From NCBI GenBank assembly GCA_034670305.1, contig JAXMNT010000023.1, positions 47,986 through 111,985 of the forward strand: 64,000 bases of DNA, read 5' to 3'. Origin of the DNA: Deltaproteobacteria bacterium. GTDB lineage: Bacteria; Myxococcota_A; Polyangia; Polyangiales; Houyiibacteriaceae. The notes beneath the pieces are model-generated. The model was not told the DNA's origin, made no database searches, and saw only the letters and a program-made list of their open reading frames with translations. Shown in pieces: positions 2,524-43,149 of this stretch. A program made the position numbers and the translations under genes. Each line of letters opens with the position of its first letter. Positions within the stretch are counted from its first letter, which is position 1.

Positions 2524-2897
2524 GACGGCGCTCGCGTCCTGGCGGCGAATGTGAACGCCACCAGGCTCACCCCGAGCTGAAGGCCCCGGAACGGCAAGAG
2601 CACCGCCGCGACCAGCAGCGCAGCCCACAGCGCATCTCGAATCCACAGGACCGCGACGCCGCAGAGCAAGACCATCCAGGCGAGCTGGGCGGCGCGGAAC
2701 CACAGCACCCTGCGTTGGCTCGCGCGGATGTCGAGCACCAGCAGCACCGTGAGCACCAAGGGTGAGGCGAGGTAGGCCCAGGTCAGTGCGGAGACGTTGG
2801 GATGGGTGAAGAGCAGGGCGCTGAGCCCCACCTCCATGAGGACGACGAGGCCGAGAAGCGCTCGCGCGGTCTTGGCGTGGTTGGCGGGATGGGTCAT
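2520..2897 (-). CDS. Small membrane protein (~4 TM)
   Basis: MTHPANH... highly hydrophobic; stop overlaps the next start. Confidence 0.5.
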   Translation of the reverse strand: MTHPANHAKTARALLGLVVLMEVGLSALLFTHPNVSALTWAYLASPLVLTVLLVLDIRASQRRVLWFRAAQLAWMVLLCGVAVLWIRDALWAALLVAAVLLPFRGLQLGVSLVAFTFAARTRAPS

Positions 2898-3001
2898 GCG
2901 CCCTTGGATGAGCCTGGCGGGCACCCGCTGGAAGGGGGCAAAAACGCCCCCCCCTCGCGAAGAGGGATGGCCCCCGTCGGCCCGCCGTGCATGATCGGCC
3001 C

Positions 3002-3967
3002 ATGGCGGCGCTGGACACGCGGGTGCTGATGGAGGTGATGCTCGAGCGCTTCGGAGAGACCCTCGGGGCACTCGCCACCGCGGGCGGGCGTCGGGAGTCG
3101 CTCGCCCGGGCCGAGGGGCTGCTCTTCCTCCACACCACCGAGGCGCTCCGACGCCAGGGGCTCAGCGCCAAAGTCCTCACCGACCTCTTCGGCTTCGCCT
3201 CGCTGACGAGCCTTCGTCGAAAGCTGCGCAAGATCCGCGAAGCACGCTTGGACGACACCCGCTCGCTGCGACAGTTCATCCTCGGCCGCGTCGCCGAGCG
3301 GGGTGCCACCCGCGCCTCACTCCTCGCCGAGCTCGAGACGCGCGACTCGGCCATCGTGCGGGGACTCATCCGCGACCTGATGGCGGAGGGTGTGCTGCAG
3401 GAGTCGGGTGCCGAGGGGCTCGAGCTCGCGCGCGCCACGCCCGAAGCCGACCTCTCGGCGGCTGCGCTCGAGCAGCTCGTCCACGTCCTCGTCGGCGAAC
3501 GCTCGAGGACCGAGGCGGAACTCGAACAGTGTCTGGGCGTGTCGCGCGAACGGGTGACCGCCGCGGCCGAGCGGCTGGTCTCGCTCGGCGTGGCGGAGCG
3601 GCACGGTGAGAGCCTGCGGTCCGGCACGAGCTGGGACCTCTTCCCAGCCTACGAGACCGACGCCGCCACGACCGGGCTCATGCATCACTTCCACGGCGTG
3701 TGTCGCGCGATCGTCGGCACCGTCCGCAAGTGGGACGAATTCGAGAGCCCGGCCGGGCTCGTGCCGCCGGCGGTGATCACTGCGACCTTCGAGGTCACCG
3801 CGGACGACCCGCTGCGAGCCGAGCTCCTCGGCGCCCACGAGCGGTTCTGCGCTGAGATCCGCGCGCTCTACGAACGCCACCAGGCCGAGGGCGCGACCGG
3901 TGCCTGCACCACCCGCATCACCCTCTACGCCGGCACCGCCGTTGACCCGATCCCGCCGACCGAGTGA
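3002..3967 (+). CDS. Uncharacterised helix-turn-helix/winged-helix protein, probable regulator
   Basis: HTH-like segments (GLSAKVLTDLFG; RTEAELEQCLGVSRERVTAAAERLVSLGVA). Confidence 0.55.
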   Translation: MAALDTRVLMEVMLERFGETLGALATAGGRRESLARAEGLLFLHTTEALRRQGLSAKVLTDLFGFASLTSLRRKLRKIREARLDDTRSLRQFILGRVAERGATRASLLAELETRDSAIVRGLIRDLMAEGVLQESGAEGLELARATPEADLSAAALEQLVHVLVGERSRTEAELEQCLGVSRERVTAAAERLVSLGVAERHGESLRSGTSWDLFPAYETDAATTGLMHHFHGVCRAIVGTVRKWDEFESPAGLVPPAVITATFEVTADDPLRAELLGAHERFCAEIRALYERHQAEGATGACTTRITLYAGTAVDPIPPTE

Positions 3968-3976
3968 ACGCGAGCG

Positions 3977-6307
3977 CTAGCGCGAGCCGGCGGCATCCAC
4001 CAAGCGAGCGAGAAAACCTTCTTCCAATACGTCGAGCTGCTCCCGGGCCGCCTCCTGGATCCGACGGGGCGCGCCGGTGCCGACGATGCGAAACCCGCCG
4101 GCCTCATCGATCCGTGAATACATCGCCGACGCGCGATTCCCCCGCATCTGGGCTCGGAGCGTGTGGAGTGCCTCGATCGTGGATGAACGACCCTCGCGCG
4201 CGCTCCACCAGAACGCTGGCGCGAGCGATTCGATGTGTGCGATCGCTTCGGCGACTCGATCGGGCCGAGCTCGCTCCTGCTGAAGAAGCGCAAAGTCGAT
4301 CCACGCGCCAAGCCGGGCCGGCTGGGCCTGCACCGCGCGCGAGAGGTCGGCCTCGGCGGCGTCCAAGTCGCCTCGAGCGAGAAAGAGCTCGCCCCGATAG
4401 CAGTACGTGGCCTCGGCTTCGAGGTACGTGTAGTCCTCCAGCCCTTCTCTCCAATGGGCGAGCGCCAGTTCGTGCTCCCCGAGGAACAAGGCGGCGGCGC
4501 CGTAGCCGACGTATCCCCAGCGGGTCCGCGTCTCGCGCCAGAGCCGACCGAACAGCTCGTAGGCGCGCTCGTAGTCGCCGAGCCAAAGTAGGATCTCGGC
4601 GGCGTACGTTTGGTAGAAGGGCACGTTGGGGTGGGCGCTGGCGAGCTCCTGAAATTCGGCGAGCACGTCTTCTACGGGGCGACGCAGCAGCGTCTCTTGC
4701 AGCTGCTCGGCGCGCCGCCGGGAGGAGCTCAAGCCGTCCTCCCAGCGAAGCACGCCACCCCGCACCGTGGTGATCGTTTCGCTTCGATTGCCACCCAGCA
4801 ACGAGAGCGCCTGGCGCAGCGCCTTCAGTGCTTCGGCGTGGGTGGGTTCACTCGGTGGAGCGGCGGCTTGGAGGAGCGCGCGCAGAAGCTCATCGACGAT
4901 GAACCAGTTCCGATCGCGAACGCGCCGGCCGGGCGTGCGTTCTTCTTCAAGCAGCGCACGCACGAGCTGCCACGCCACTTGGTCGCCGAGGGACACCTCG
5001 CAGATCGCGAGGCACGCTTCGTCCAGTCGACCGAGGGCTCCGAGGACTTCCGCTCGCCAGAGCCGGGCGTGTTGATCGTCGGGATCGAGGCGGAGCGCGT
5101 GCTCCAGGTGTTCCAGCGCCAGGTCCGGCTCGCCGCACACATGGTGGGCCGCGCCACGCAGACGATGCAGGTGGGACGAGGGCGCGCCTTCGACCCGGGG
5201 CGCGAGCAGGTCCCTCGCATCCTTCGGCGCGTTTCTCCACAGCAGCAGCGTCGCCAGCACCAGCGCGACGCGGTCGTGATTCGTCTCGTCGGAGGGCGCT
5301 CGCAACAAAGACTGCAGCGTCGTTTCCGCCCGGCGAAAATCGCCCGCGGCGATTCGAGCTTCCGCGCATGCCAGCAGCTCGTCGGCGCTCTGCGCCGTCT
5401 CCTCCATGACCTCCGCCGCACGCATGGCGGCGGATCGATTGCGCGATGTGGCCGCCATCCGCGCGACGTGGTGCGCGCGACGAAACGCAAGATCGCGCCG
5501 GCCCTCGGAGAGCGGGAGTGCGCGTACGAGGCAGTCGATCGCGTCGTTCCGGTGGCCGAGTCGGTCGAGCAGTTGTGCGGACTCGAACGCGCCGGGCGCG
5601 CCTCCATCGTCTGCGGCCGCCATCGCGAGCGATCGGGCCGCGCTCACATCGCCGCAGAGGGCAGCGCGCAGTGCGCCGACCACGCGTGCCGAGCGGTCGC
5701 CCCGTTCACTCGGCACGCACCCGAGCGCCTCCGCGAACCGGCCGGCGGCCAGCAGCAGTCCCCAACGAAGCTCGTCCGCATCGGCCACCGCGGGGGGCGG
5801 GACCGTCGACTCGTCAGCACGATGTTTCTTGGGGGCACAGCCCCCAAACCCCGTCCCGGTGACACGGCTTGCTCGCTTTGCTCGGCTTCGCCGCGTCGAA
5901 TGTTCGGCGGAGCGCGTGAGGAGCGCGTCGGCGGCGGCGAGCGCGGGCTCGCATGGTTCCATGCCGCCAAGCGATGGGAGCGAGCGGAGCGTGCGGTGAA
6001 ACTGGACGGTCGCCTCCAGCCATCGGATCGCTTCGGGCGACTTCCGCAGCTGGCGTCGCACGGCGTGCGCCAGTCGTTTCAAATCGGTGGCGTCGGGCCC
6101 CCACCGCTCGCTGACCTTGGCGGGCGGCGAGAGTCCGACCAAGAACCACCGCTCCTGCGGAGCCTGGTAGAGAAACTCGACCCGGCCTTCGCGCAGATAG
6201 ACGGCCTCGGGTCGGAGCCCTCGTGGCCATCGCGCCAGCCAGGCGGGAAGCGCCAAACGAATCCTCCTCGAAGGGCGCCCTCGGTCCTCTCGCATCGGCC
6301 CGAACAT
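3977..6307 (-). CDS. Tetratricopeptide-repeat protein
   Basis: Multiple TPR motifs (ALEHLEHALRLDPDD, YCYRGELFLARGDLDAAEADLSRA); start uncertain. Confidence 0.75.
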   Translation of the reverse strand: MFGPMREDRGRPSRRIRLALPAWLARWPRGLRPEAVYLREGRVEFLYQAPQERWFLVGLSPPAKVSERWGPDATDLKRLAHAVRRQLRKSPEAIRWLEATVQFHRTLRSLPSLGGMEPCEPALAAADALLTRSAEHSTRRSRAKRASRVTGTGFGGCAPKKHRADESTVPPPAVADADELRWGLLLAAGRFAEALGCVPSERGDRSARVVGALRAALCGDVSAARSLAMAAADDGGAPGAFESAQLLDRLGHRNDAIDCLVRALPLSEGRRDLAFRRAHHVARMAATSRNRSAAMRAAEVMEETAQSADELLACAEARIAAGDFRRAETTLQSLLRAPSDETNHDRVALVLATLLLWRNAPKDARDLLAPRVEGAPSSHLHRLRGAAHHVCGEPDLALEHLEHALRLDPDDQHARLWRAEVLGALGRLDEACLAICEVSLGDQVAWQLVRALLEEERTPGRRVRDRNWFIVDELLRALLQAAAPPSEPTHAEALKALRQALSLLGGNRSETITTVRGGVLRWEDGLSSSRRRAEQLQETLLRRPVEDVLAEFQELASAHPNVPFYQTYAAEILLWLGDYERAYELFGRLWRETRTRWGYVGYGAAALFLGEHELALAHWREGLEDYTYLEAEATYCYRGELFLARGDLDAAEADLSRAVQAQPARLGAWIDFALLQQERARPDRVAEAIAHIESLAPAFWWSAREGRSSTIEALHTLRAQMRGNRASAMYSRIDEAGGFRIVGTGAPRRIQEAAREQLDVLEEGFLARLVDAAGSR
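5826..5878. repeat. 53-bp palindromic dispersed repeat lying in-frame within the TPR ORF
   Basis: 51/53 identical to the reverse complement of 39881-39933; core hairpin TTGGGGGC-ACA-GCCCCCAA. Confidence 0.8.
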
Positions 6308-32961: not shown

Positions 32962-33792
32962 ATGAGAAGACTTCTCCTCCTTGGTCTGGTCGTGGGCTGC
33001 ACCGTGACGCTCACCGTCGACGCCACGCTCTACCGCCGACCCACCACCTACGATACCGCGGACAGCCCGCCGCCGCCGCTGCGCGCCGAAGCCAGCCCTG
33101 GCGAAGCGCCGGAGCTCGGCAGCATCTGGGTGAGCGGCCATTGGGAGTGGCGAGGGACGAGCTGGCGCTGGACGCCCGGCCGCTGGACCAAACCCCGCGA
33201 AGGCTACGTGTGGGAACCGCCGGTCTGCGTTGCGCTCGCCGGCACCTACCGATACCACCCGGGCTACTTCCGCCCGGCCGACGAGGAGCCGCCGGAGGAG
33301 TACCGAGCCCCGGGCCAGATCCAGCTGCACAACCCGTCGGGTGTGCGCCCAGACGTGCCGAGCCGCGTGCAGATCCGTCCGAACGAGCCGGCCCCCGAGA
33401 CCACCTGGGTCGCCCAGCGCCCCGATCCGGTCGCGCCGGACACCGAACGTGAAGTCGGCGCCAACCCAGAGCTCGGCGGCGGCGAGCCGCTCAACCCGCG
33501 CGTCGGCGCGGGCCAAGACGGCGTCACCGGTCCGACCGCGGGCGAAGCCGGCACCCAGACGGTGGAGCTGACCTGCAGCCTTCCGATCGCCCGTGTGCCC
33601 CGCGCGCAGGGCCGCTTCGTCATCAACGGCACCGGCTTCGATCTGGCGACGGTCGTGAAGGTCGGCGGCACGGTGCAGAGCATCCGCAGCACCCGCCCGA
33701 CCTCGCTCGACGTGAACATCGACCGCGGTGGCGTGGTCACCGTCCAGCGCGGCCAGACCCGCGTCGAGTGCGGTTCGATCGAACTGTTCTAG
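32962..33792 (+). CDS. Lipoprotein with WxxGxW repeats and an IPT/TIG-like C-terminal domain
   Basis: VVGC lipobox; IWVSGHWEW, WTPGRW, YHPGYF; INGTGF. Confidence 0.7.
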   Translation: MRRLLLLGLVVGCTVTLTVDATLYRRPTTYDTADSPPPPLRAEASPGEAPELGSIWVSGHWEWRGTSWRWTPGRWTKPREGYVWEPPVCVALAGTYRYHPGYFRPADEEPPEEYRAPGQIQLHNPSGVRPDVPSRVQIRPNEPAPETTWVAQRPDPVAPDTEREVGANPELGGGEPLNPRVGAGQDGVTGPTAGEAGTQTVELTCSLPIARVPRAQGRFVINGTGFDLATVVKVGGTVQSIRSTRPTSLDVNIDRGGVVTVQRGQTRVECGSIELF

Positions 33793-33856
33793 CAGGTCGC
33801 CCCGAAGGCGCCCTGGCCCTTGCCCTTGCCCTTGCCCCTGCCCTTGCCCTCGGTGA
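33789..33856. repeat. Truncated relative of the fold-back element left end
   Basis: CTAGCAGGTCGC identical to 31490-31501, then GCCCTT hexamers; 33827-33855 is the exact reverse complement of 42159-42187. Confidence 0.65.
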
Positions 33857-33956
33857 TTGTTCCGCGACCAAGAGCGCGGCCAACGCGCACCAACCCACAA
33901 CAAGCCAGCGTCGCGATGATCCCGTGACGCTGGTTTTGTGAGAGCCTCCCCGCGAG

Positions 33957-35678
33957 ATGAGCACCGGCTCCATCGTCGTGGTGCGCGAGTACTTCACGAC
34001 CGGCGATCCCCGTTTCCTCGAGGAGCTGTTCGCCTGCCAGGACCACGCGGCATTGGCGGGCTTCGCGCCGATGTTCTTCGGAGACCTGCGCCCTTGGGCC
34101 CGCGCCCAACTCGAGCGCTACATCGACGATGGGTGCGACCGGCCGTTTCACCGCGCGCTGGTCAAACGGGTCTTCAAAGCCGCCGAGCGTGCCGACGACG
34201 CGGAGCTCGTCGCCCGGTTCGCGGTGGCGTTCGACCGGCTCGTGTCGATGGAGCTGCGCACGGTCAAGAAACGCTTCTGGGGGCAAGGCCGCCGCGAAGT
34301 TCAGATCCTTCGCCGCAAAGGCAGCTACCCCGGTCGGCGCATCTGGTACGAGCCGAAGTCGGTGCAGAAGTGGAAGCCGCCGAGCCATGGTTCGGTCGGC
34401 GCGCAGTTCTCCTTGGCCACCCGTCAACATCTGCGGCGTCGCGCGCTGCGGTTTCTGCGCAAGCTCGGGCCACGGGACCCCGAGCGGTTCCTCGACTGTG
34501 CTTCGCTCAGCTTGCGGCTCTACGAAGACGCGCACTTCGACACCGGCGCGGACATCCCGGAGCGGTTCGCCCTGGTGAACTTGCTCTTTCAGTGGACCCC
34601 GGTGCTTTACCGCACGTCGCGCAAGATCTTCGTGACCCACGGCCGCAGCCTCGCGGATCTCCAAGCGTCGCTGCTGCACGAACACCTCTGGCTCGAGCAG
34701 CCCGAGCGCGTCGAGCAACTGCTGCCGCTGTGCCGCGCGCTTCTCGTCCGCCGCGCGCTGCTCGACTTCTACAACCGCGCGTTTCCCGACGCGCTGGACG
34801 AGGTGCCCTTCGAGCGACTGCGGCCACTGCTCGAGAGCGAACACCCGGACCTTCAGGCGTTCGGCATCGAGCGGCTGAAGAACGCAGAGGGACTCGAGCG
34901 GGTGTCGGTCGACGACTGGTTGCGACTGCTGCAGCTCGAGCATCCGGAGCTCTTGCCGATCGTGGTCCAGCAGATCGAAGCCCACGTGAGCCCGAGCCGG
35001 CTGACCGAAGCACAAAAGATGGCGATGGCGGTCCGGCCCGAAGTGCACGTCGCGCAGCTCGGACTTCGATGGCTGATCGAAGCCAACACAGATCTCGACG
35101 TGATGCTCCAGCTGCGGCACGCCACCTGTCCGGGTGTGCGTGCCGAAGCCGCGCTCTGGTTGGCGGATGCGATCGAAGAGCGGGGCAGCGTCGAGCAACT
35201 CCGCGAGATGCTCGATGCCCGCCACGACGACATGCGCTGCGCGGCGCAAGTGCTGCTCGAGCACGAACGGTTCCGCGACGAGACGAGGTTGTGGCTCGCG
35301 CTCGCGGAGTCGCCGTACCCGGAGATGCAGGCCCTGTTGACCCAGCACCTGGAAGAGCGCCGACGGGCGTTCGCAGGCGACGGGTCCGCAGTCCACCATC
35401 TGTGGGCCACGAGCCTGCTCTCCATCCATGGCGGCAGCCGAACCAAACGCCGGGTGCTCCGACAGATCGCGGACCGCATCGGCGAAGATCCGGGACAAGC
35501 CGAAGCACTCTTGCCCCTGCTTCGGATCTCGCTGCGTTCCGTGCGTCCCTCGGAACGCGGTGCGGGGTTGGCGGCGATTGCGCGGCTCGCGTTCACCGAC
35601 GCTTCGTTCGCAGCGCTGGTCGCGACGGAACTGCCCGAGCTTGATCTCGGGTTGAACGCCGAACCGGTGCCCGCATGA
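33957..35678 (+). CDS. Retron-associated alpha-solenoid (ARM/HEAT-like) protein
   Basis: Leu/Ala/Arg-rich helical repeats (LLESEHPDLQAFG, MLDARHDDMRCAA, LAESPYPEMQ); first gene of the RT operon; ATGA-coupled to the SWIM gene. Confidence 0.7.
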   Translation: MSTGSIVVVREYFTTGDPRFLEELFACQDHAALAGFAPMFFGDLRPWARAQLERYIDDGCDRPFHRALVKRVFKAAERADDAELVARFAVAFDRLVSMELRTVKKRFWGQGRREVQILRRKGSYPGRRIWYEPKSVQKWKPPSHGSVGAQFSLATRQHLRRRALRFLRKLGPRDPERFLDCASLSLRLYEDAHFDTGADIPERFALVNLLFQWTPVLYRTSRKIFVTHGRSLADLQASLLHEHLWLEQPERVEQLLPLCRALLVRRALLDFYNRAFPDALDEVPFERLRPLLESEHPDLQAFGIERLKNAEGLERVSVDDWLRLLQLEHPELLPIVVQQIEAHVSPSRLTEAQKMAMAVRPEVHVAQLGLRWLIEANTDLDVMLQLRHATCPGVRAEAALWLADAIEERGSVEQLREMLDARHDDMRCAAQVLLEHERFRDETRLWLALAESPYPEMQALLTQHLEERRRAFAGDGSAVHHLWATSLLSIHGGSRTKRRVLRQIADRIGEDPGQAEALLPLLRISLRSVRPSERGAGLAAIARLAFTDASFAALVATELPELDLGLNAEPVPA

Positions 35679-37321
35679 AGCTCGGGTACGTCGGCACGAG
35701 CGCCGTGGACCTCGGTCCGTACCGGTCGACGATCGGGTTCAAACCGAACCTCTGCCGCGAGCCGGTCTGGTTCGAGGGCGCGCTCCGGGACCCGGTGCGT
35801 TTCCGCGAGGTCATGAGCGCGCTGCACGAGATCGTGGTCGGGGACCTGCGCCCGCCCAAGAAGGATCGCAGCCGTCACGACGCGTACCTCCAGCGCAAAC
35901 AAGCCGACGAAGAGAAGCTGCGGGCGCAGCTCACCGAATCCGCGCAGTCCGAGATCCTCGCGGCGACGGTGGCCAAGCCGCTGCCCCCCGACTTTCAGAA
36001 GAAGTACCAGGAGGCCCATCAGATCTACTGGCACCTGCGCCGCAAGTGGGCGAGCGAACTGTGGCAGCACGACCGGGAACTCTTCCGGCACCTGGTTCCA
36101 TGCGATCCCGTCGTCACCGTGGCGCCCGACGTGGTGCTCTTCGAAGGCTTCAGCAAAGACGAGTCCAGCTACGGCTGCGTCAGCCTCGACCGCGGTGCGA
36201 TCGATGGCCAAAGCGTCTCGCTCGGCACCACCAACGTGGACTACTCGGTCGCGCTCTTCGAACACTTCCAGTCGCTGCGCAGCTACAAGGAGACGCGCCT
36301 GCACGTGGACCCGCAGGGGTTCGAGGTGAACACCGAAGGCAACGCGGACTACCGCGAAGAGAAGATCGAGCTGCCGCCGAGTTGGCTCGCGGGGTTCGGT
36401 CAGATCAGCGCGGCCGCGGCGCTCGATGCCACCGTCGTGCCGCTCTCCGTCGAAGCGCTCTACTCGCTGCTTGCCACACTTCGCCGCCGGCGTGCCCGCA
36501 CGAGCCCGCGCGCGATCCGATTCGAACTCGAGCCGGGCAAGTCGCCGCGCCTCGTGCTCGAACCGTGGGGCACCGCGATCGAATCGCGCGGACCCGCCTG
36601 GGGCGGCCGCAACGAACACATCCGGATCTGGGGCCGCCGGCGCCTGCTCGTCCTCGCGCGAGCGCTGCCCTTCGTCGACCGGTGCGAAGTGCATCTGCTC
36701 GGCACGGGGCTGCCGAGTTTCTGGGTGCTGCACCTCGGACCGATGCGGCTCACCCTGGCGCTCAGCGGGTGGACCACCAATGACTGGACGAGCGGCGCGG
36801 CGCTCGACGCATTGGCTGGCGAAGTCGATCCCGACGAGACCACCATGGAGCAGGTCTCGCAGGTGCTCTTTCGCGAACGCGCGACTTCGTTCGCGGGCAT
36901 CGCCTCCGACGTACCCGCGGGCGATGCGAAGATCGCGGCGGCGCTGCACCGCTTGGCCAAACGCGGCCAGTGTGTGTTCGACGTGGGTGCGGGCGTGTAC
37001 CGCTGGCGGCAGATCCTGCCCGAAGCGATCGGCGAAGCGCAGCTCGGTCCAGAGCCGGTCGAGAAGACCGAAGGCCGCAAACTCTTCGCCGGTCACAAGG
37101 TGCGCATCACCCGCGACGAACGGGTGGGCGACAAGCGGCTCCTGCAAGGCACCGTGCAGGGCACCAAGTGCGAGACCTTGCTCGACCTCGACGGCCGCAT
37201 GCGCCAAGCGGTCTGCATCTGTGCGCACCACAAGAAGTTCGGGATCAAACAGGGTCCCTGCCGGCATCTGCTGGCGCTCCGTCTCGAAGCGCCCGCCGAT
37301 GCCATGAAGGGCGCACCATGA
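35675..37321 (+). CDS. Retron-associated winged-helix + SWIM zinc-finger protein
   Basis: C-terminal CIC-x12-CRH SWIM motif; wHTH-like segment ending GVYRWR; DPVVTV...FEGFSKDES N-terminal motif. Confidence 0.85.
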   Translation: MKLGYVGTSAVDLGPYRSTIGFKPNLCREPVWFEGALRDPVRFREVMSALHEIVVGDLRPPKKDRSRHDAYLQRKQADEEKLRAQLTESAQSEILAATVAKPLPPDFQKKYQEAHQIYWHLRRKWASELWQHDRELFRHLVPCDPVVTVAPDVVLFEGFSKDESSYGCVSLDRGAIDGQSVSLGTTNVDYSVALFEHFQSLRSYKETRLHVDPQGFEVNTEGNADYREEKIELPPSWLAGFGQISAAAALDATVVPLSVEALYSLLATLRRRRARTSPRAIRFELEPGKSPRLVLEPWGTAIESRGPAWGGRNEHIRIWGRRRLLVLARALPFVDRCEVHLLGTGLPSFWVLHLGPMRLTLALSGWTTNDWTSGAALDALAGEVDPDETTMEQVSQVLFRERATSFAGIASDVPAGDAKIAAALHRLAKRGQCVFDVGAGVYRWRQILPEAIGEAQLGPEPVEKTEGRKLFAGHKVRITRDERVGDKRLLQGTVQGTKCETLLDLDGRMRQAVCICAHHKKFGIKQGPCRHLLALRLEAPADAMKGAP

Positions 37322-37342
37322 CGATGCGCCGTAGTCTCAGTT

Positions 37343-37596
37343 TTCATCTCTTCGAGGAGAACCATCCGCACGAGCCCATCATGCCTCGGCGTTACGCCGC
37401 GGTGGAGTTTCGCTTCCCATCCATCCCCACGCCCGATGCTCTTGGTTGGCCCCGCACGCCCACTCATCGCTACCCCACGAAGGGACCCCCCATTGCATGG
37501 GGGGTGCCGGTAGCGAGAGTGGGCAGCGGGGCCTGGGGTGATCGGCCGTGGTCCGGAGCACGAAGTCGAGTGGGTGGTTCTCCTCGAGAAGATGAA
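37343..37596 (+). ncRNA. msr-msd: Retron msr-msd non-coding RNA
   Basis: 25-bp a1/a2 inverted repeat (37343-37367 / 37572-37596), short msr hairpins, long msd hairpin 37427-37551, directly upstream of the RT. Confidence 0.85.
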
Positions 37597-37610
37597 GGGG
37601 GCTAGACAGC

Positions 37611-39275
37611 ATGGCCTTCAAAGATTGGCTGCGCGGCACCTGGAAGAAGGTGAAGGCCTGGCTCGCCTACAACCCGAGCAAGGTGCCGAAGCTGCCACCC
37701 CCGAAGGTGGTGACGCTGCCCGAACCGAAGGCGCCACCCAAGTCGTGGGGCACGCCAGCGGGCACGCCGTTCGATCCGACGTCTCCGGCGGCGCCGCCCG
37801 CGGCCTCGGCGAAGAAGAAGAAGCCGCAGCCGAAACCGATCGATCCGTGGGCGACCGGAACGCTGCTGAAGTTGTCGCCCGAAGAGTTGCGGGCGCGGGC
37901 CATGAAGATCCAGCCTTGGAAGACCGAGTGGATCGGCCGGGTAGACGTCATCCCGCCGCAGGGCGACGAACGCACGGCGCTCATCGATCGCGGGCTCGTG
38001 CTGCGCGGGTTCTTCACCGAAGAAGAACTCGCTGAGATCCACGAGCTCGGCGACCTGTGGCTCGAGCACCACGAAGCAGCGAAACTCGCGAAGGCCCGCG
38101 CAGCACAGAACGCGGACGCGGCGATCGCGGCGCTTCGCCAAGAAGAAGCCGAGCGGAAGGCGGAGAAGAAGCGCCTCGCGAAGGAGCGGCGGGAGAAACG
38201 CCGCGCGGCGATCGAACACCGGAAGAAGACCGACATCGTCTTTCTCGGCCGCGGTGTCTCCGGCCGGCTCGGGGACCGGCGTGCCCACGTCGAGAAGCTC
38301 GGCGCCGCGGGGCTGCCGGTGCTCGCGACGCCCGCCGATGTCGCCCAAGCACTCGGGCTCCAGATCCCGAAGTTGCGTTGGTTGGCCTTCGCCTCCGACG
38401 CACCGGAGCGCTCGCACTACGTGCAGTTCGAAGTGCCGAAGCGGCGTGGTGGCACGCGGGTGCTGGCGTCCCCGAAGCGCGACATGCGCGCCGCACAGTC
38501 GTGGATCCTGGAGAACATTCTCAGCAAGGTGCCGCTCCACGACGCGGCGCACGGTTTCGTGCCGGGGCGCTCCACCAAAACCTGCGCCGCTCCACACCGC
38601 GGTCGGCCGGTCGTGGTGAACTTGGACTTGAAGGACTTCTTCCCGTCGATCCTGCTTCGGCGCGTGTCCGGTTTCTTCGAGGCGCTCGGGTACTCGCCGG
38701 CGGCCGCCACCATCCTGGGGTTGCTCTGCACCGCGTCGCCGCGCCGGACTGTCCGCTACGATGGAGTCTCCTTCGAAGTCGCGGTCGGCGACCGTGCGTT
38801 GCCGCAAGGCGCCTGCACCAGTCCTGCGTTGAGCAACTTGATCGCCAAGCGGCTCGACGCACGGCTTGCGGGTTTGGCCAAGGCCCGCGGCTTCGTCTAC
38901 ACGCGCTACGCCGACGACCTCACCTTCAGTGGACCGAAGGACGAAGTGCCCCGCTTGCTCGCGCGCATCCGCCACGTGGTCGACGAAGAAGGGTTCGTCG
39001 TGCACCCCGACAAGACGCGGGTGCAGCGCAAAGGCGGCCGGCAGATGGTGACGGGCATCGTCGTCAACGACAAAGCCCGGCTCACCCTGCGCCGCGACGA
39101 AGTCCGGAAGCTTCGCGCGATCCTCCACAACGCGAAGAAGACTGGCCTCAAGGCGCAGAACCGCGACCAACACCCAGACTTCGTCGCCCACCTGCGCGGC
39201 AAGATCGCCTACCTCGGCATGGTGGACCGGGCCCGCGCCGACGAGTTCACCACCGCGCTCGAAGCGCTGCTCTAG
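37611..39275 (+). CDS. Retron-type reverse transcriptase with a long N-terminal extension
   Basis: HDAAHGF (region X), DLKDFFPSI, LPQGACTSPALSN, YTRYADDLTFS, VTGIVV (retron region Y VTG). Confidence 0.95.
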   Translation: MAFKDWLRGTWKKVKAWLAYNPSKVPKLPPPKVVTLPEPKAPPKSWGTPAGTPFDPTSPAAPPAASAKKKKPQPKPIDPWATGTLLKLSPEELRARAMKIQPWKTEWIGRVDVIPPQGDERTALIDRGLVLRGFFTEEELAEIHELGDLWLEHHEAAKLAKARAAQNADAAIAALRQEEAERKAEKKRLAKERREKRRAAIEHRKKTDIVFLGRGVSGRLGDRRAHVEKLGAAGLPVLATPADVAQALGLQIPKLRWLAFASDAPERSHYVQFEVPKRRGGTRVLASPKRDMRAAQSWILENILSKVPLHDAAHGFVPGRSTKTCAAPHRGRPVVVNLDLKDFFPSILLRRVSGFFEALGYSPAAATILGLLCTASPRRTVRYDGVSFEVAVGDRALPQGACTSPALSNLIAKRLDARLAGLAKARGFVYTRYADDLTFSGPKDEVPRLLARIRHVVDEEGFVVHPDKTRVQRKGGRQMVTGIVVNDKARLTLRRDEVRKLRAILHNAKKTGLKAQNRDQHPDFVAHLRGKIAYLGMVDRARADEFTTALEALL

Positions 39276-39354
39276 ATCCCGCCAGTTCAGTTCGCCTCGC
39301 CAGTGCGGCCCCCAATGACAGCCCCGGGTTCCCGCACCCGCCGCCCGACGCGCT

Positions 39355-40320
39355 TCAGCCGAGCGCCACCGCCAGTGCTTCGAGCAGCGCGCCGCGCCGA
39401 GTGCTCCGCGGCATCTCTCCGGCGGGCGTCTGAACGAACGCATCCAGCCAAGGTTCGATTGGACCGCGGGCGAGTATGCCGTCCAGTGCATAGAGCGAGA
39501 GCTCCTCGACCCCGCTCCCGCGACAGATCGCCACGTCGTCCGCGAGCTCGGACACATCGCGGTACGGACGTTCGTCCCCGAGCGCGCCACCACCCACCAC
39601 ACCGAGCGACACCGACGACGACCGCCGCGCCAGCCGCGCGAGCAGGTCCCGCGCGATGCGCCGGTCGACCAACCCGAGCGCGTACCCCTCGAAGAGACTC
39701 GTGTACGCCATCGGCTCGAACGCGCGCTCCGACAGCCCTTCGATCGAAGTGCCGAGCCATTGCTGCCAGCGGGCTCCGAACGAGAGCATCGGCGGCGCCA
39801 CGACATCCACCCGCCAGCCGCGCTCCCGAAGCGATGTGGACAGTGCGCGGTGAGAAGCAACTCTCGGGCGCCGGACGGGGAAGCGAGCCAGCGGTGTCAC
39901 CGGGACGGGGTTTGGGGGCTGTGCCCCCAAGAAGTACCCCACCAGTCGCGCGATGCGGGCGTCCAGCCGAAGCACCGACTGGCCATCGCGCAGCACCGAG
40001 CGGGTCCACGCGATCGGTGGCTCGACGTCGAGCAGCAGCGTGGTTGGCGCGAGGCCTTCGGTGAGCCGGTCCACGTGCGCCGCGAACGCGTGCACGTTGC
40101 CTGCGTTCGGCCACCGCCCATCGTGGTCGGAGAGCAGCGGCCAGAGCGTGAGTTTCGTGCCCGCGTCGGCGGCGCGCCCTTGCAACCGGCTGAACTCGGA
40201 CCGCGTCTCCGGCGCGTCGAACAGGGCCACCGCCAGCTCGATGCCGCGTCGCGCCAACGCGTCGAGCAAGGGAGGGTCGAGTGCAGCGAGCGGCACATGC
40301 TCCGAGTACAGCCGACGCAT
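39355..40320 (-). CDS. Hypothetical protein, possibly TIM-barrel/glycoside-hydrolase-like
   Basis: LWPLL, LLLDVEPP, PMAYTS, LYALDG; carries the in-frame 53-bp repeat. Confidence 0.6.
   Translation of the reverse strand: MRRLYSEHVPLAALDPPLLDALARRGIELAVALFDAPETRSEFSRLQGRAADAGTKLTLWPLLSDHDGRWPNAGNVHAFAAHVDRLTEGLAPTTLLLDVEPPIAWTRSVLRDGQSVLRLDARIARLVGYFLGAQPPNPVPVTPLARFPVRRPRVASHRALSTSLRERGWRVDVVAPPMLSFGARWQQWLGTSIEGLSERAFEPMAYTSLFEGYALGLVDRRIARDLLARLARRSSSVSLGVVGGGALGDERPYRDVSELADDVAICRGSGVEELSLYALDGILARGPIEPWLDAFVQTPAGEMPRSTRRGALLEALAVALG
39881..39933. repeat. 53-bp palindromic dispersed repeat lying in-frame in the 39355-40320 ORF
   Basis: Reverse complement is 51/53 identical to 5826-5878. 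Confidence 0.8.
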
Positions 40321-40392: not shown

Positions 40393-41022
40393 TCAGCCGG
40401 CAGGGTGCTGCGACCCAGCCGTCAATGCCTTGCGGGCCGGGGCGCGGCGTGCGTCCGCGGCGCCGGTGCGTTCGAGCCGCGCGAGGATCCGCGCTCGCTT
40501 CTTCGCCGACAGGGTGCGCACCGAGTACACGGTGGTCGAACGCACCGGCCCGAAGCCGACGTACTTCAAGGTCGCGGTCTTGAAGCTGCCGTGGAGCGCG
40601 CGGTTGTGGGCGAGCGTGTACCAGAAGCTCGGGCTGTCCATGCCGGTCACGAGGCGCGCCGAACGACCGGCGAGAAGACCCACTGGAAGCGGTCGTCCCT
40701 TCACGTTCTGGAAGGCCCAGCCCGGTAGGAACGCTCGGTCGATGAGCCCTTTGAGGGCAGCCGGCACGCCCGCCCACCACGTCGGGAAGACCCAGGCCAC
40801 ATGGTCGGCGCGTTGGATCGCTTCTTGGGCTCGAACCAGGTCCGGCTCCAGCGTCTGCCCCTCGCGAAAGCCGAATCGGAGCGTCGGGTCGAACTCGAGG
40901 TCCGCGACCTGAAGGCGGGACACGGTGCCGAACTCCGCTGCGCCCTTGGCGTAGGCGTCGGCCATCGCGCTGTGAAACGAGTTCGGATCCGGATGCGCTT
41001 GCACGATCAGTGTGTGGGTCAT
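40393..41022 (-). CDS. NAD(P)H-dependent oxidoreductase, flavodoxin-like fold (MdaB/KefF type)
   Basis: AHPDPNSF, FPTWWAGVPAALKGLIDR; divergent from LysR. Confidence 0.9.
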   Translation of the reverse strand: MTHTLIVQAHPDPNSFHSAMADAYAKGAAEFGTVSRLQVADLEFDPTLRFGFREGQTLEPDLVRAQEAIQRADHVAWVFPTWWAGVPAALKGLIDRAFLPGWAFQNVKGRPLPVGLLAGRSARLVTGMDSPSFWYTLAHNRALHGSFKTATLKYVGFGPVRSTTVYSVRTLSAKKRARILARLERTGAADARRAPARKALTAGSQHPAG

Positions 41023-41066
41023 GGCGAACAACCTAGTGATGCACAGGAACATGGGTAGACGAGTGT

Positions 41067-41081
41067 ATGCATCCCGTGCAT
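41067..41081. promoter_or_regulatory. Putative LysR T-N11-A binding box
   Basis: ATGCA-TCCCG-TGCAT dyad between divergent oxidoreductase and LysR genes. Confidence 0.5.
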
Positions 41082-41091
41082 GCATGAATGC

Positions 41092-42003
41092 ATGGCATCC
41101 ACCAACGGTTCCGCACCCCTTCACGCGTGGGACGATCTGCGCATCTTTCTCGCGGTCGTCCGCGCCGGTTCGTTCACCGACGCAGCCCGCAAGCTCGGGG
41201 TCGAGCAGTCCACCGTGAGTCGCCGCATCGCGGCGCTGGAGACGAACCTCGAAGCCCACCTCTTCGACCGGACCCCGCGGGGCCTGCGCAACACCCCACT
41301 CGCGCAACAGCTCCGAGCACGGGCCGAGCGGGTGGAGGCTGCGGTGCTCGCTTTCGACGACGACGCACGCGGCACGGAGCGCGCGGTCGCCGGCCAGGTT
41401 CGGCTCGCACTCACCGAAGGGCTCTCGCTCTCGGTGGTCGTGCCGACGCTGCTGCCCGAACTGCGCCGCACCTACCCAGAGATCACGGTCGATCTGCTGT
41501 GCGACTACCAGTCCGCCGACCTGCTCCAGCGGGAAGCCGACATCGCCATCCGGTTCTACCGACCGACCCGCGGCGACTTGGTGGCCAAGCGCGTCGCGCG
41601 GTTGCCGACCGCCATCCTCGGCCAGCGCGATTACATCCGAACCCGCGCGCCGCGCAAACACCACCGCACGGCCGACCGCTTCGACTGGGTCGGGTTTCAC
41701 ATGCCTGGTTTCCGCGCACCCGAAGAGCAATGGCACCAGCAGTGCGTGGGGGTGGAGCCCGCGATCCGTTCCAACAGCTACGTCTCCCAGGTGGCCGCGG
41801 TCCGCGCGGGGCTGGGCCTTGCGTTGCTCACCCGCTCGCTCTGCCGCATCCACCCGGAGCTGCGGGAAATCGAACTCGGTCTGCCCGAGGGCCCGGTGCT
41901 CGAACTGTGGCTGGTCACCCATCGCGCGATCCGAGACTTGCCTCGGGTCGCCGCGGTCTACGACCACCTCGAAGGCGGCCTTCGCGCGCTCGACGGCATG
42001 TAG
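41092..42003 (+). CDS. LysR family transcriptional regulator
   Basis: WDDLRIFLAVVRAGSFTDAARKLGVEQSTVSRRI HTH; READIAIR. Confidence 0.95.
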   Translation: MASTNGSAPLHAWDDLRIFLAVVRAGSFTDAARKLGVEQSTVSRRIAALETNLEAHLFDRTPRGLRNTPLAQQLRARAERVEAAVLAFDDDARGTERAVAGQVRLALTEGLSLSVVVPTLLPELRRTYPEITVDLLCDYQSADLLQREADIAIRFYRPTRGDLVAKRVARLPTAILGQRDYIRTRAPRKHHRTADRFDWVGFHMPGFRAPEEQWHQQCVGVEPAIRSNSYVSQVAAVRAGLGLALLTRSLCRIHPELREIELGLPEGPVLELWLVTHRAIRDLPRVAAVYDHLEGGLRALDGM

Positions 42004-42011
42004 CGGCCGTC

Positions 42012-42113
42012 GGCTTCGGCTCCGGCTTCGGATTCGGCTTCGGCTTCGGCTTCGGATTCGGCTTCGGCTTCGGCTTCGGCTTCGGCTTCGGCTTCGGCTT
42101 CGGCTTCGGCTTC
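42012..42113. repeat. Intergenic hexanucleotide tandem repeat (GGCTTC) x ~17
   Basis: Read directly; a few GGATTC/GGCTCC variants. Confidence 0.95.
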
Positions 42114-42231
42114 GAAGGGCAAGGGGAAGGCATCCTCTCCTGCGGATTCGGATTCGGACACCGAGGGCAAGGGCAGGGGCAAGGGCACGGGCAAGGCTGT
42201 CCGAGCGAAGCGGCGGCGGGACTTCCGACCA

Positions 42232-43149
42232 GTGCATGTCAAACTGCCCCCCTTCATGGAGGACCGGCGCGCCAAGCTCGAGCGGAAGCTCTACAAGAAG
42301 CTCAAGACGACCTGCACAGCCTGGCAGCTGCTGGCGCCGGGCGACCGGGTCATGGTCGCGATCAGCGGGGGCAAAGACAGCTACGTCATGCTCCACCTGC
42401 TGCACAAGCTGGTGCCGCGCCTCCCGTTCGAGGTCGAACTCATCGCCGTGCACCTCGACCAGGTGCAGCCCGGCTACGACGGCGCGCCGCTCGTGGAGTG
42501 GTTGCAAGCGTCGGGGCACCGGTTCGAGATCCTCCGCGAGAACACCTACGAGGTCGTGGTCGACCGCACGAAAGAGAACGGCACCTACTGTTCGCTCTGC
42601 TCACGTCTGCGGCGCGGCATCCTGTACACCGCGGCCGAGCGCCTCGGCTGCAACAAGATCGCGCTCGGCCACCACCGGGAAGACACGCTCGAGACCTTCC
42701 TGATGAACCTGTTCTACGCCGGCAAGATGCAAGCGATGCCAGCGGTCTACACGACCGACGACGGCCGCTTCGACGTCATCCGGCCACTCATCGAATGCGA
42801 CGAGGCGTCGATCGCCGAGCTCGCCGCGATCGAGGCGTTCCCGATCCTTCCGTGCAACCTCTGCGGCAGCCAAGACGGCCTCAAACGCGACGCGATGAGT
42901 GCGCTCCTCACGAGCCTCGAGAAGGACAACCCGCACCTGCGCTCGGTGATGCTCAACGCGATTCGCAACGTGCGGCCGACCCATCTTCTGGATCCAGAAG
43001 TCACCGAAGCCTGGGCCAAGCGCCCCGCCCACATCCCGCCGAAACAGCTGGCGGTCTCGACCACCCAGCACGCGGGCGCCGAACCCGTGATGTCCAGCGC
43101 AGCGCAGCCGGCGCCAAGCGGCAAACACCGACTCCCTTTGGCGGAGTAG
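42232..43149 (+). CDS. ttcA: tRNA 2-thiocytidine(32) synthetase
   Basis: SGGKDS PP-loop, CSLCSRLRRG, GHHRED, IRPL, PCNLCGSQ. Confidence 0.93.
   Translation: MHVKLPPFMEDRRAKLERKLYKKLKTTCTAWQLLAPGDRVMVAISGGKDSYVMLHLLHKLVPRLPFEVELIAVHLDQVQPGYDGAPLVEWLQASGHRFEILRENTYEVVVDRTKENGTYCSLCSRLRRGILYTAAERLGCNKIALGHHREDTLETFLMNLFYAGKMQAMPAVYTTDDGRFDVIRPLIECDEASIAELAAIEAFPILPCNLCGSQDGLKRDAMSALLTSLEKDNPHLRSVMLNAIRNVRPTHLLDPEVTEAWAKRPAHIPPKQLAVSTTQHAGAEPVMSSAAQPAPSGKHRLPLAE

Follow-up and report, generated by a model that had tools for sequence, protein, structure and literature searches.

The segment at 37343-37596 on the plus strand of the 64,000-nucleotide stretch of DNA analyzed here (hereafter the window) is very probably the gene for the msr-msd noncoding RNA (ncRNA) of an Mx162/Mx65-like retron of type XIII, and we assign a probability of roughly 90% to this reading together with the mechanism that is proposed for it below. 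In this analysis, the assignment is based on structure, covariation, homology, a conserved G and gene context, whereas we infer the priming, the termination site, the length of the msDNA and the role of the effectors from established retron biology. An msr-msd gene beside an RT_XIII gene is the default expectation once an RT_XIII gene has been seen, and the type XIII msr-msd structure that the initial annotation had read at this place is supported by the adjoining RT_XIII, SWIM_XIII and HEAT-ARM_XIII genes, by homologues and by covariation.

The element occupies the gap between the SWIM_XIII gene and the RT_XIII gene, with the HEAT-ARM_XIII gene further upstream, and all three genes are encoded on the plus strand. 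The HEAT/ARM-repeat accessory gene (33957..35678) encodes a protein of 573 aa, residues 2-565 of which match the PADLOC model HEAT-ARM_XIII (E 7.9e-131), and searches of this protein against Pfam and NCBIfam gave no match. Its end is overlapped by 4 nt by the start of the SWIM zinc-finger accessory gene (35675..37321; 548 aa; PADLOC SWIM_XIII, E 7.9e-166), the product of which is a putative effector. A pattern search located a CxCx12CxH motif near the C-terminus of the SWIM protein (residues 514-531), and a C-terminal motif of this form is given for SWIM cluster 114 by Mestre 2020 (PMC7736814).

The retron reverse transcriptase (RT) gene (37611..39275) begins 15 nt downstream of the msr-msd element on the same strand and encodes a 554-aa protein that carries a long extension at its N-terminus. 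The protein contains a Pfam RVT_1 domain (E 1.3e-21, residues 275-472), and its top PADLOC model is RT_XIII (E 1.9e-153, 509.9 bits), followed by RT_other (380.7 bits), with the RT_II-A models far below; the NCBIfam retron RT matches to the window are all sub-threshold. Pattern searches of the RT located YADD (residue 433) and VTG (residue 480) and did not find the exact NA..H pattern of the NAxxH motif, for which a CAAPH stretch, as we presume from an unaligned mapping, may be the equivalent. Both the NAxxH motif and the VTG triplet mark retron RTs in Figure 1 of Mestre 2020 (PMC7736814). Residues 1-165 (37611-38100), which precede the RT_XIII model match, form a proline/lysine-rich extension of approximately 165 aa; Simon 2019 (PMC6868368) describes N-terminal extensions on myxococcal retron RTs and gives their function as unknown. 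Downstream of the retron, the minus strand carries a 708-aa ORF (40393-42519) with a C-terminal Flavodoxin_2 / FMN reductase domain, and a weak Coronavirus-nucleocapsid Pfam match of this ORF, under the cut-off, is probably low-complexity noise.

Type XIII includes the first retrons ever found. According to Mestre 2020 (PMC7736814), the type is made up of an RT of clade 10, a SWIM protein, in most cases also a HEAT/ARM protein, and an ncRNA structure of its own, and its members include Mx162, Mx65, Sa163 and Ne144; the HEAT/ARM gene stands before the SWIM gene in many type XIII retrons, though not in all. In the window, the RT belongs to clade 10 by PADLOC model score, and PADLOC likewise identified both the linked SWIM protein and the preceding HEAT/ARM gene. 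Judged by these protein models, the order HEAT/ARM - SWIM - ncRNA - RT matches the operon of type XIII retrons in Mestre 2020.

The two ends of the element form a terminal (a1/a2) stem of 31 nt. Its 5' arm (37343..37373), which is also apparent in the fold, and its 3' arm (37566..37596) were found by repeat search as a plus-strand inverted repeat with 84% Watson-Crick complementarity and 192 nt between the arms. When counted base by base, 29 of the 31 positions pair, including three G-U pairs (T37351-G37588, T37365-G37574 and G37368-T37571), and the two mismatches are A37370/A37569 and C37350/A37589. The inward pairing to 37373/37566 that had been read initially holds, as the inner end of the stem is the pair A37373-T37566, after which comes G37374.

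A search of genome contigs with the RT revealed 20 loci with 41-65% identity, which are distributed among Sandaracinaceae, Polyangiaceae, Gemmataceae and others. In a sample of 201 genomes from the window's phylum, 25 genomes, the window's own genome (G000) included, had an RT match at E <= 1e-60, and Myxococcus was not named among the RT-matching control genomes (14 control genomes). The window's own genome contains three RT_XIII genes. The window and 11 loci were aligned with MAFFT (alignment A1; 12 sequences, 303 columns); as these loci were chosen for a visible long-range stem upstream of the RT, helix 1 is biased in A1. The alignment shows a conserved core after the stem, CGA-G-CCCAYCAUGC, which is followed by a hairpin, and a conserved block ahead of the 3' arm, GGUGAUCGGACGUGGUCC...GAAG-UCG, while both arms of the terminal stem, like the upper msd stem, vary in sequence among loci. 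To remove the selection bias of A1, nhmmer profiles were built from the conserved core only, with the outer stem arms excluded, and these profiles, combined with anchoring, yielded 23 copies from 18 sources. R1, a covariance model of A1, scored the window RNA at 202.4 bits (E 2e-49), among the best scores of the family, and detected 11 copies that had not been used to train it (E <= 1.3e-22). All 23 copies were then fitted to the structure of the model (alignment A3), and A3 hence leans toward that structure.

The homologous RNAs are located in operons of related RT_XIII genes, mostly directly upstream of the RT. A strong RNA copy accompanies the RT at 15 of the 20 loci; the copy at L012 is cut by the contig end, the contigs of L013 and L016 contain no DNA upstream of the RT, L015 has no RNA copy in the available DNA, and L019 has only weak matches, which lie downstream of the RT. 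Weaker R1 matches were also observed beside more distant RTs, including two in the window genome (L022, 27.6 bits; L023, 35.5 bits). In L022 (G000:C67:16939-21141), with an RT_XIII of the same genome, GAGCC follows a terminal stem of 30 nt (1078-1107 / 1302-1331), and L023 (G000:C10:166721-170944) is the third RT_XIII gene of this genome, with its weak match of 35.5 bits. The weak R1 matches at L019 (6153-6367 and 6405-6625, E 2e-4 and 8e-4), a locus whose RT has 41% identity, may be divergent ncRNAs or chance matches, and its archaeal origin is given by the label of the metagenome-assembled genome (Candidatus Helarchaeota) only.

Pairing in the model structure is far more frequent than in shuffled or displaced alignments. 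In A1, 91.2% of 637 cells pair, compared with 70.8 +/- 1.2% in shuffles (none of 500 reached the observed value) and 33-48% with slid partners, and 36 of the 54 pairs show compensatory changes; in A3, 93.4% of 1195 cells pair, compared with 68.2 +/- 1.0% when shuffled and 36-47% with slid partners, and compensatory changes are seen in 40 of the 53 pairs. As the sequences of A1 and A3 are kin, the shuffle counts are not probabilities. Covariation in homologues, the absence of which had been named initially as grounds for abandoning the msr-msd reading, is present and supports, in these alignments, the terminal stem, the first hairpin of the msr and, within the msd, the basal stem and the initial pairs of the upper stem. 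For the terminal stem (A3 helices 1-4), 82-100% of cells pair, with compensatory changes in 27 of the 31 pairs and one-sided variation in one, so a 31-nt a1/a2 stem covaries over 23 copies; the three pairs beside G37374 never vary (C-G, G-C and A-U in 23/23 copies). In addition, the outer flanks, which had no role in the detection of copies, average -52.2 kcal/mol when paired with their own partner and -26.2 +/- 8.2 kcal/mol with swapped ones, and the outer flanks of the window pair at -47.4 kcal/mol, a stability that was equaled in 9 of 496 partner swaps.

The candidate priming (branching) nucleotide is G37374 on the plus strand (context CGA-G-CCC), which is unpaired and is the first base after the end of the stem. 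A G occupies the aligned position in 22 of the 23 family copies, and G37565, opposite G37374, is invariant in all 23, with the G that faces the priming G being preceded by GAA in 20. Two such residues recall the 'two opposing G residues' of retron consensus structures in the legend to Figure 2 of Mestre 2020 (PMC7736814). In the account of Simon 2019 (PMC6868368), the priming G is positioned at or just past the inner stem end, usually in the context TAGC, with CAGC in Mx162 and Sa163 and GAGC in Mx65. The context of G37374 is of this xAGC form and, as GAGC, is the same as that of Mx65. The proposal in the initial annotation of a branching G at 37374 thus fits a conserved junction G in a GAGC context, and this family-conserved G after the stem would be the priming nucleotide.

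The same account states that the stem may include the priming G or stop immediately 5' of it (Simon 2019, PMC6868368), which would allow a retron ncRNA at this locus to prime from another G within the stem end, such as G37372; the window copy could also be inactive and make no msDNA. One copy of the family (L020:4611-4843) is the lone exception without the junction G, so such copies persist, although the other copy in that operon keeps its G, and the presence of three RT_XIII genes in the genome might provide a redundancy that permits decay. Nevertheless, G37372 is paired, as an invariant G-C in 23/23 copies, and it is G37374 that forms the first unpaired base in 22/23 copies and stands in the reported xAGC context. 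Moreover, the three protein genes are open and have strong scores, and the RNA itself is, at 202.4 bits, among the best of its family. We consider both priming from another G and an inactive copy to be improbable, and retain an active retron primed at G37374.

Downstream of the putative priming G, an msr hairpin is located at 37383..37402 on the plus strand (GCC.CGGCG / TTA / CGCCG.GGT; A3 helices 5 and 6), in which 97-99% of cells pair and 4 of the 9 pairs are compensatory. The CGGCG-TTA-CGCCG hairpin read earlier at 37387-37399 is present and extends to these limits. A weaker hairpin, noted at the same time near 37404-37417, does appear in the window's own fold (37404-37416) but is not conserved, as 56.7% of its cells pair compared with 53.9% when shuffled and 130 of 500 shuffles reach 56.7%; with pairing no better than that of shuffles or slid partners, it was rejected as a conserved second msr hairpin. 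The hairpin at 37383..37402 is the only msr hairpin that is backed by covariation. It is followed by a 24-nt msr-msd linker (37403..37426, plus strand) with conserved C-rich positions (A1 columns C76-C86, invariant or nearly so), and the msDNA would probably have its 3' end in or near this linker. Retron ncRNAs consist of one to three msr hairpins and then a long msd stem-loop (Mestre 2020, PMC7736814); the window has one covarying msr hairpin and an msd hairpin of 126 nt.

The msd hairpin, the predicted template for reverse transcription, extends over 37427..37552 on the plus strand and was identified by fold, repeat search and covariation. Its basal stem (37427-37437/37542-37552) is conserved, with 96-100% of cells paired and 5 of 9 pairs compensatory in A3 helices 7 and 8, whereas the long stem above it is variable. 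A bulge interrupts its 5' side at 37475-37481, the apical hairpin spans 37485-37505, and the apical part reads ACCCCCCAT-TGC-ATGGGGGGT. Repeat search recovered all four of the msd sub-stems listed in the initial annotation (37448-55/37526-33, 37458-65/37517-24, 37467-74/37509-16 and 37482-93/37497-508), and the asymmetric bulge that it had described near 37475-37484 corresponds to 37475-37481 in the minimum-free-energy fold; the base of the hairpin is indeed near the 37427/37551 given there, but was found at 37427/37552. A long hairpin is seen at the msd position in the folds of all 23 copies.

Between the msd hairpin and the 3' arm lie 13 unpaired nucleotides (37553..37565, plus strand) that end in GAAG, the predicted template start, and GAAG precedes the 3' arm in 20/23 copies. 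With priming at G37374, G37565 would be the first base copied, and the msDNA would contain the complement of the template 37427-37565 (139 nt) and, in addition, a short stretch overlapping the msr 3' end. Simon 2019 (PMC6868368) gives the msr/msd overlap as approximately 5-10 nt, and as 8 nt in Mx162; a stop between approximately 37417 and 37431 would produce an msDNA of 135-149 nt. As DNA, a 147-nt version of the predicted molecule folds at -50.8 kcal/mol (z = -6.1). Termination in Eco1 is not set by secondary structure and is affected by RNase H1 (Palka et al. 2022, PMC8989520), and because termination there is independent of secondary structure, the 3' end of the msDNA cannot be read from the sequence and its length is a guess. 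We therefore give the predicted length as approximately 135-150 nt, for which the initial figure of 130-150 nt was a reasonable estimate.

As an alternative, the element might be a regulatory or mobile inverted repeat unconnected with reverse transcription, such as a leader controlling RT translation, a REP/MITE-like palindrome, or a structure that terminates or attenuates the SWIM gene. It fills the SWIM-RT gap, only 15 nt separate its 3' arm from the start codon of the RT, so that it could affect translation, and the reverse strand folds nearly equally well. However, 192 nt lie between the arms, with conserved, covarying helices inside, and each strong copy is found within the operon of a related retron RT, whatever its place there. 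An intrinsic-terminator scan of 33500-39600 found no terminator-like site in the SWIM-RT gap, and a sigma-70 promoter scan of the same interval found none either, although both scans are uninformative in a G+C-rich genome. The element is not a dispersed repeat, as the only other R1 matches in the 64-kb window are two that are short and chance-like (E 0.048 and 0.33). A regulatory or mobile repeat appears highly improbable against this background, and the msr-msd reading is preferred. A point against the latter is that an Rfam scan of 36000-40000 on both strands gave no match at E <= 1.

Fold energy supports a structured molecule at this locus and was rejected as a test of strand. The RNA of 37335-37605 folds at -157.3 kcal/mol, compared with -112.7 +/- 5.6 kcal/mol in 200 shuffles (z = -7.9; 0/200 as good), and the opposite strand folds at -152.3 kcal/mol (z = -8.3); because both strands fold almost equally well, strand is not decided by energy. 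A functional RNA from the minus strand, for which this fold of -152.3 kcal/mol is the only point in favor, can nearly be dismissed, as the cells of A3 comprise 111 G-U/U-G and 19 A-C/C-A, though in an alignment built on the plus strand, the three G-U pairs of the window stem would become A-C, and the plus strand also encodes the RT and both accessory proteins. The excess of G-U and the orientation of the RT fit an msr-msd RNA made from the plus strand. The sequencing runs with this locus amount to 11 rows from 5 studies, at contig level and from metagenomes only, with no RNA run listed; four of the rows may be the origin of this DNA.

Based on these features and on established retron biology, we propose the following mechanism for the window retron. 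The RNA would be made from the plus strand, probably within the transcript of the operon, and its ends (37343-37373 with 37566-37596) would pair, leaving G37374 unpaired opposite the template start at G37565. The RT (37611-39275) would recognize the msr hairpin at 37383-37402, and the 2'-OH of G37374 would prime the cDNA. Synthesis would proceed leftward from 37565 to 37427 through the msd hairpin and stop a few nucleotides into the linker. Removal of the copied template by RNase H would then leave a branched RNA-DNA molecule, the DNA of which, approximately 135-150 nt, would refold as a long hairpin. By analogy with other tripartite retrons, the complex of msDNA and RT presumably keeps hold of the SWIM and HEAT/ARM proteins or signals to them.

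Comparison with known retrons is consistent with this assignment. Retron-Mxa1 (Mx162, Myxococcus xanthus) and Retron-Sau1 (Sa163, Stigmatella aurantiaca) are, like the window retron, of type XIII with an RT of clade 10 (Table 1 of Mestre 2020), and Simon 2019 describes an N-terminal extension of their RTs, a feature shared by the 554-aa RT of the window. Compared by description, the terminal stem and the msd hairpin are long in both, as in the window, and their msDNA, like the one predicted for the window, clearly exceeds 100 nt. The differences are that Mx162 has an msDNA of 162 nt with an 8-nt msr/msd overlap (Simon 2019), whereas that of the window is predicted to be shorter (approximately 135-150 nt), and that the reported priming context is CAGC in Mx162 and Sa163 and GAGC in the window. 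Retron-Mxa2 (Mx65, Myxococcus xanthus) shares with the window both the type and the reported priming context GAGC, but its msDNA is, according to the name of the retron, only 65 nt, whereas the window has 192 nt between the stem arms. Relatives with shorter spacing, 110-123 nt between the arms, occur in other genomes (L039, L041, L042, L043 and L046). The type XIII ncRNA of Mestre 2020 is described as a distinct structure tied to clade 10 RTs, SWIM and HEAT/ARM, and the window operon combines such an RT with SWIM and HEAT/ARM genes and a candidate ncRNA of this type, as far as a comparison with the text description goes. More distantly, Retron-Eco1 (Ec86) resembles the window in having an a1/a2 stem with a priming G (a candidate in the window) at its end, one or more msr hairpins, an msd hairpin and an RT gene just downstream, as far as its published description goes; it differs in the RT clade, in the effectors and in its TAGC priming context, and the window has one supported msr hairpin only. 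The main texts of the census preprint by Khan et al. and of a 2025 PLoS Biology retron paper do not mention type XIII, Mx162 or SWIM, and our literature searches found no functional study of a type XIII retron.

Some relatives of the window retron carry two full msr-msd genes per RT, as was observed in planctomycete type XIII operons and in one labeled Alcaligenaceae. The pairs are L010:2759-2990 and 4746-4983, L014:2516-2751 and 2762-3007, L011:2558-2794 and 4490-4725, L020:2664-2898 and 4611-4843, and L009:4365-4587 and 4622-4854. The gene order is HEAT-ncRNA-SWIM-ncRNA-RT in L010 and HEAT-ncRNA-ncRNA-SWIM-RT in L014 (Limnoglobus roseus PX52, NZ_CP042425.1, 695-6347), where both ncRNAs are situated between HEAT and SWIM and none is directly upstream of the RT. 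Because of L014, the place of the ncRNA in type XIII operons is not fixed. Between paired copies, the msr differs at 0/72 positions in L010, 3/72 in L011 and 3/72 in L014, and the upper msd stem at 11/56, 22/58 and 20/60 positions, respectively; the two copies of L009 are identical across the compared inner region. These operons suggest that one type XIII RT may make two msDNAs, and a literal text search of the literature did not turn up any account of natural retrons that carry a second ncRNA gene.

Across the family, the msr is constant, as are the basal stem of the msd and an RRGNCRAC-like apical motif at a set distance from the G, and the long msd stem between them varies freely by compensatory substitution, even among near-identical loci. 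The motif RRGNCRAC itself lies on the 5' side of the tip of the msd hairpin, 103-106 nt after the G, in 16/23 copies, with a variable stem below it, and its form in the window (37479-37486, GAAGGGAC) is one base shorter. It is conceivable, though we regard it as rather doubtful, that diversifying selection acts on the variable msd stem as a specificity element and that a single type XIII RT can produce two different msDNAs.

With the present analysis, a type XIII retron of an uncultured bacterium has been annotated in terms of its RNA, its candidate priming G, its predicted template and its three proteins. The family alignment and the covariance model provide coordinates for the mapping of RT-DNA and for retron engineering. 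Should the doubtful proposal of a specificity element prove true, the single-copy retron of the window would represent the simple form of a system in which the sequence of the msDNA stem matters for sensing.
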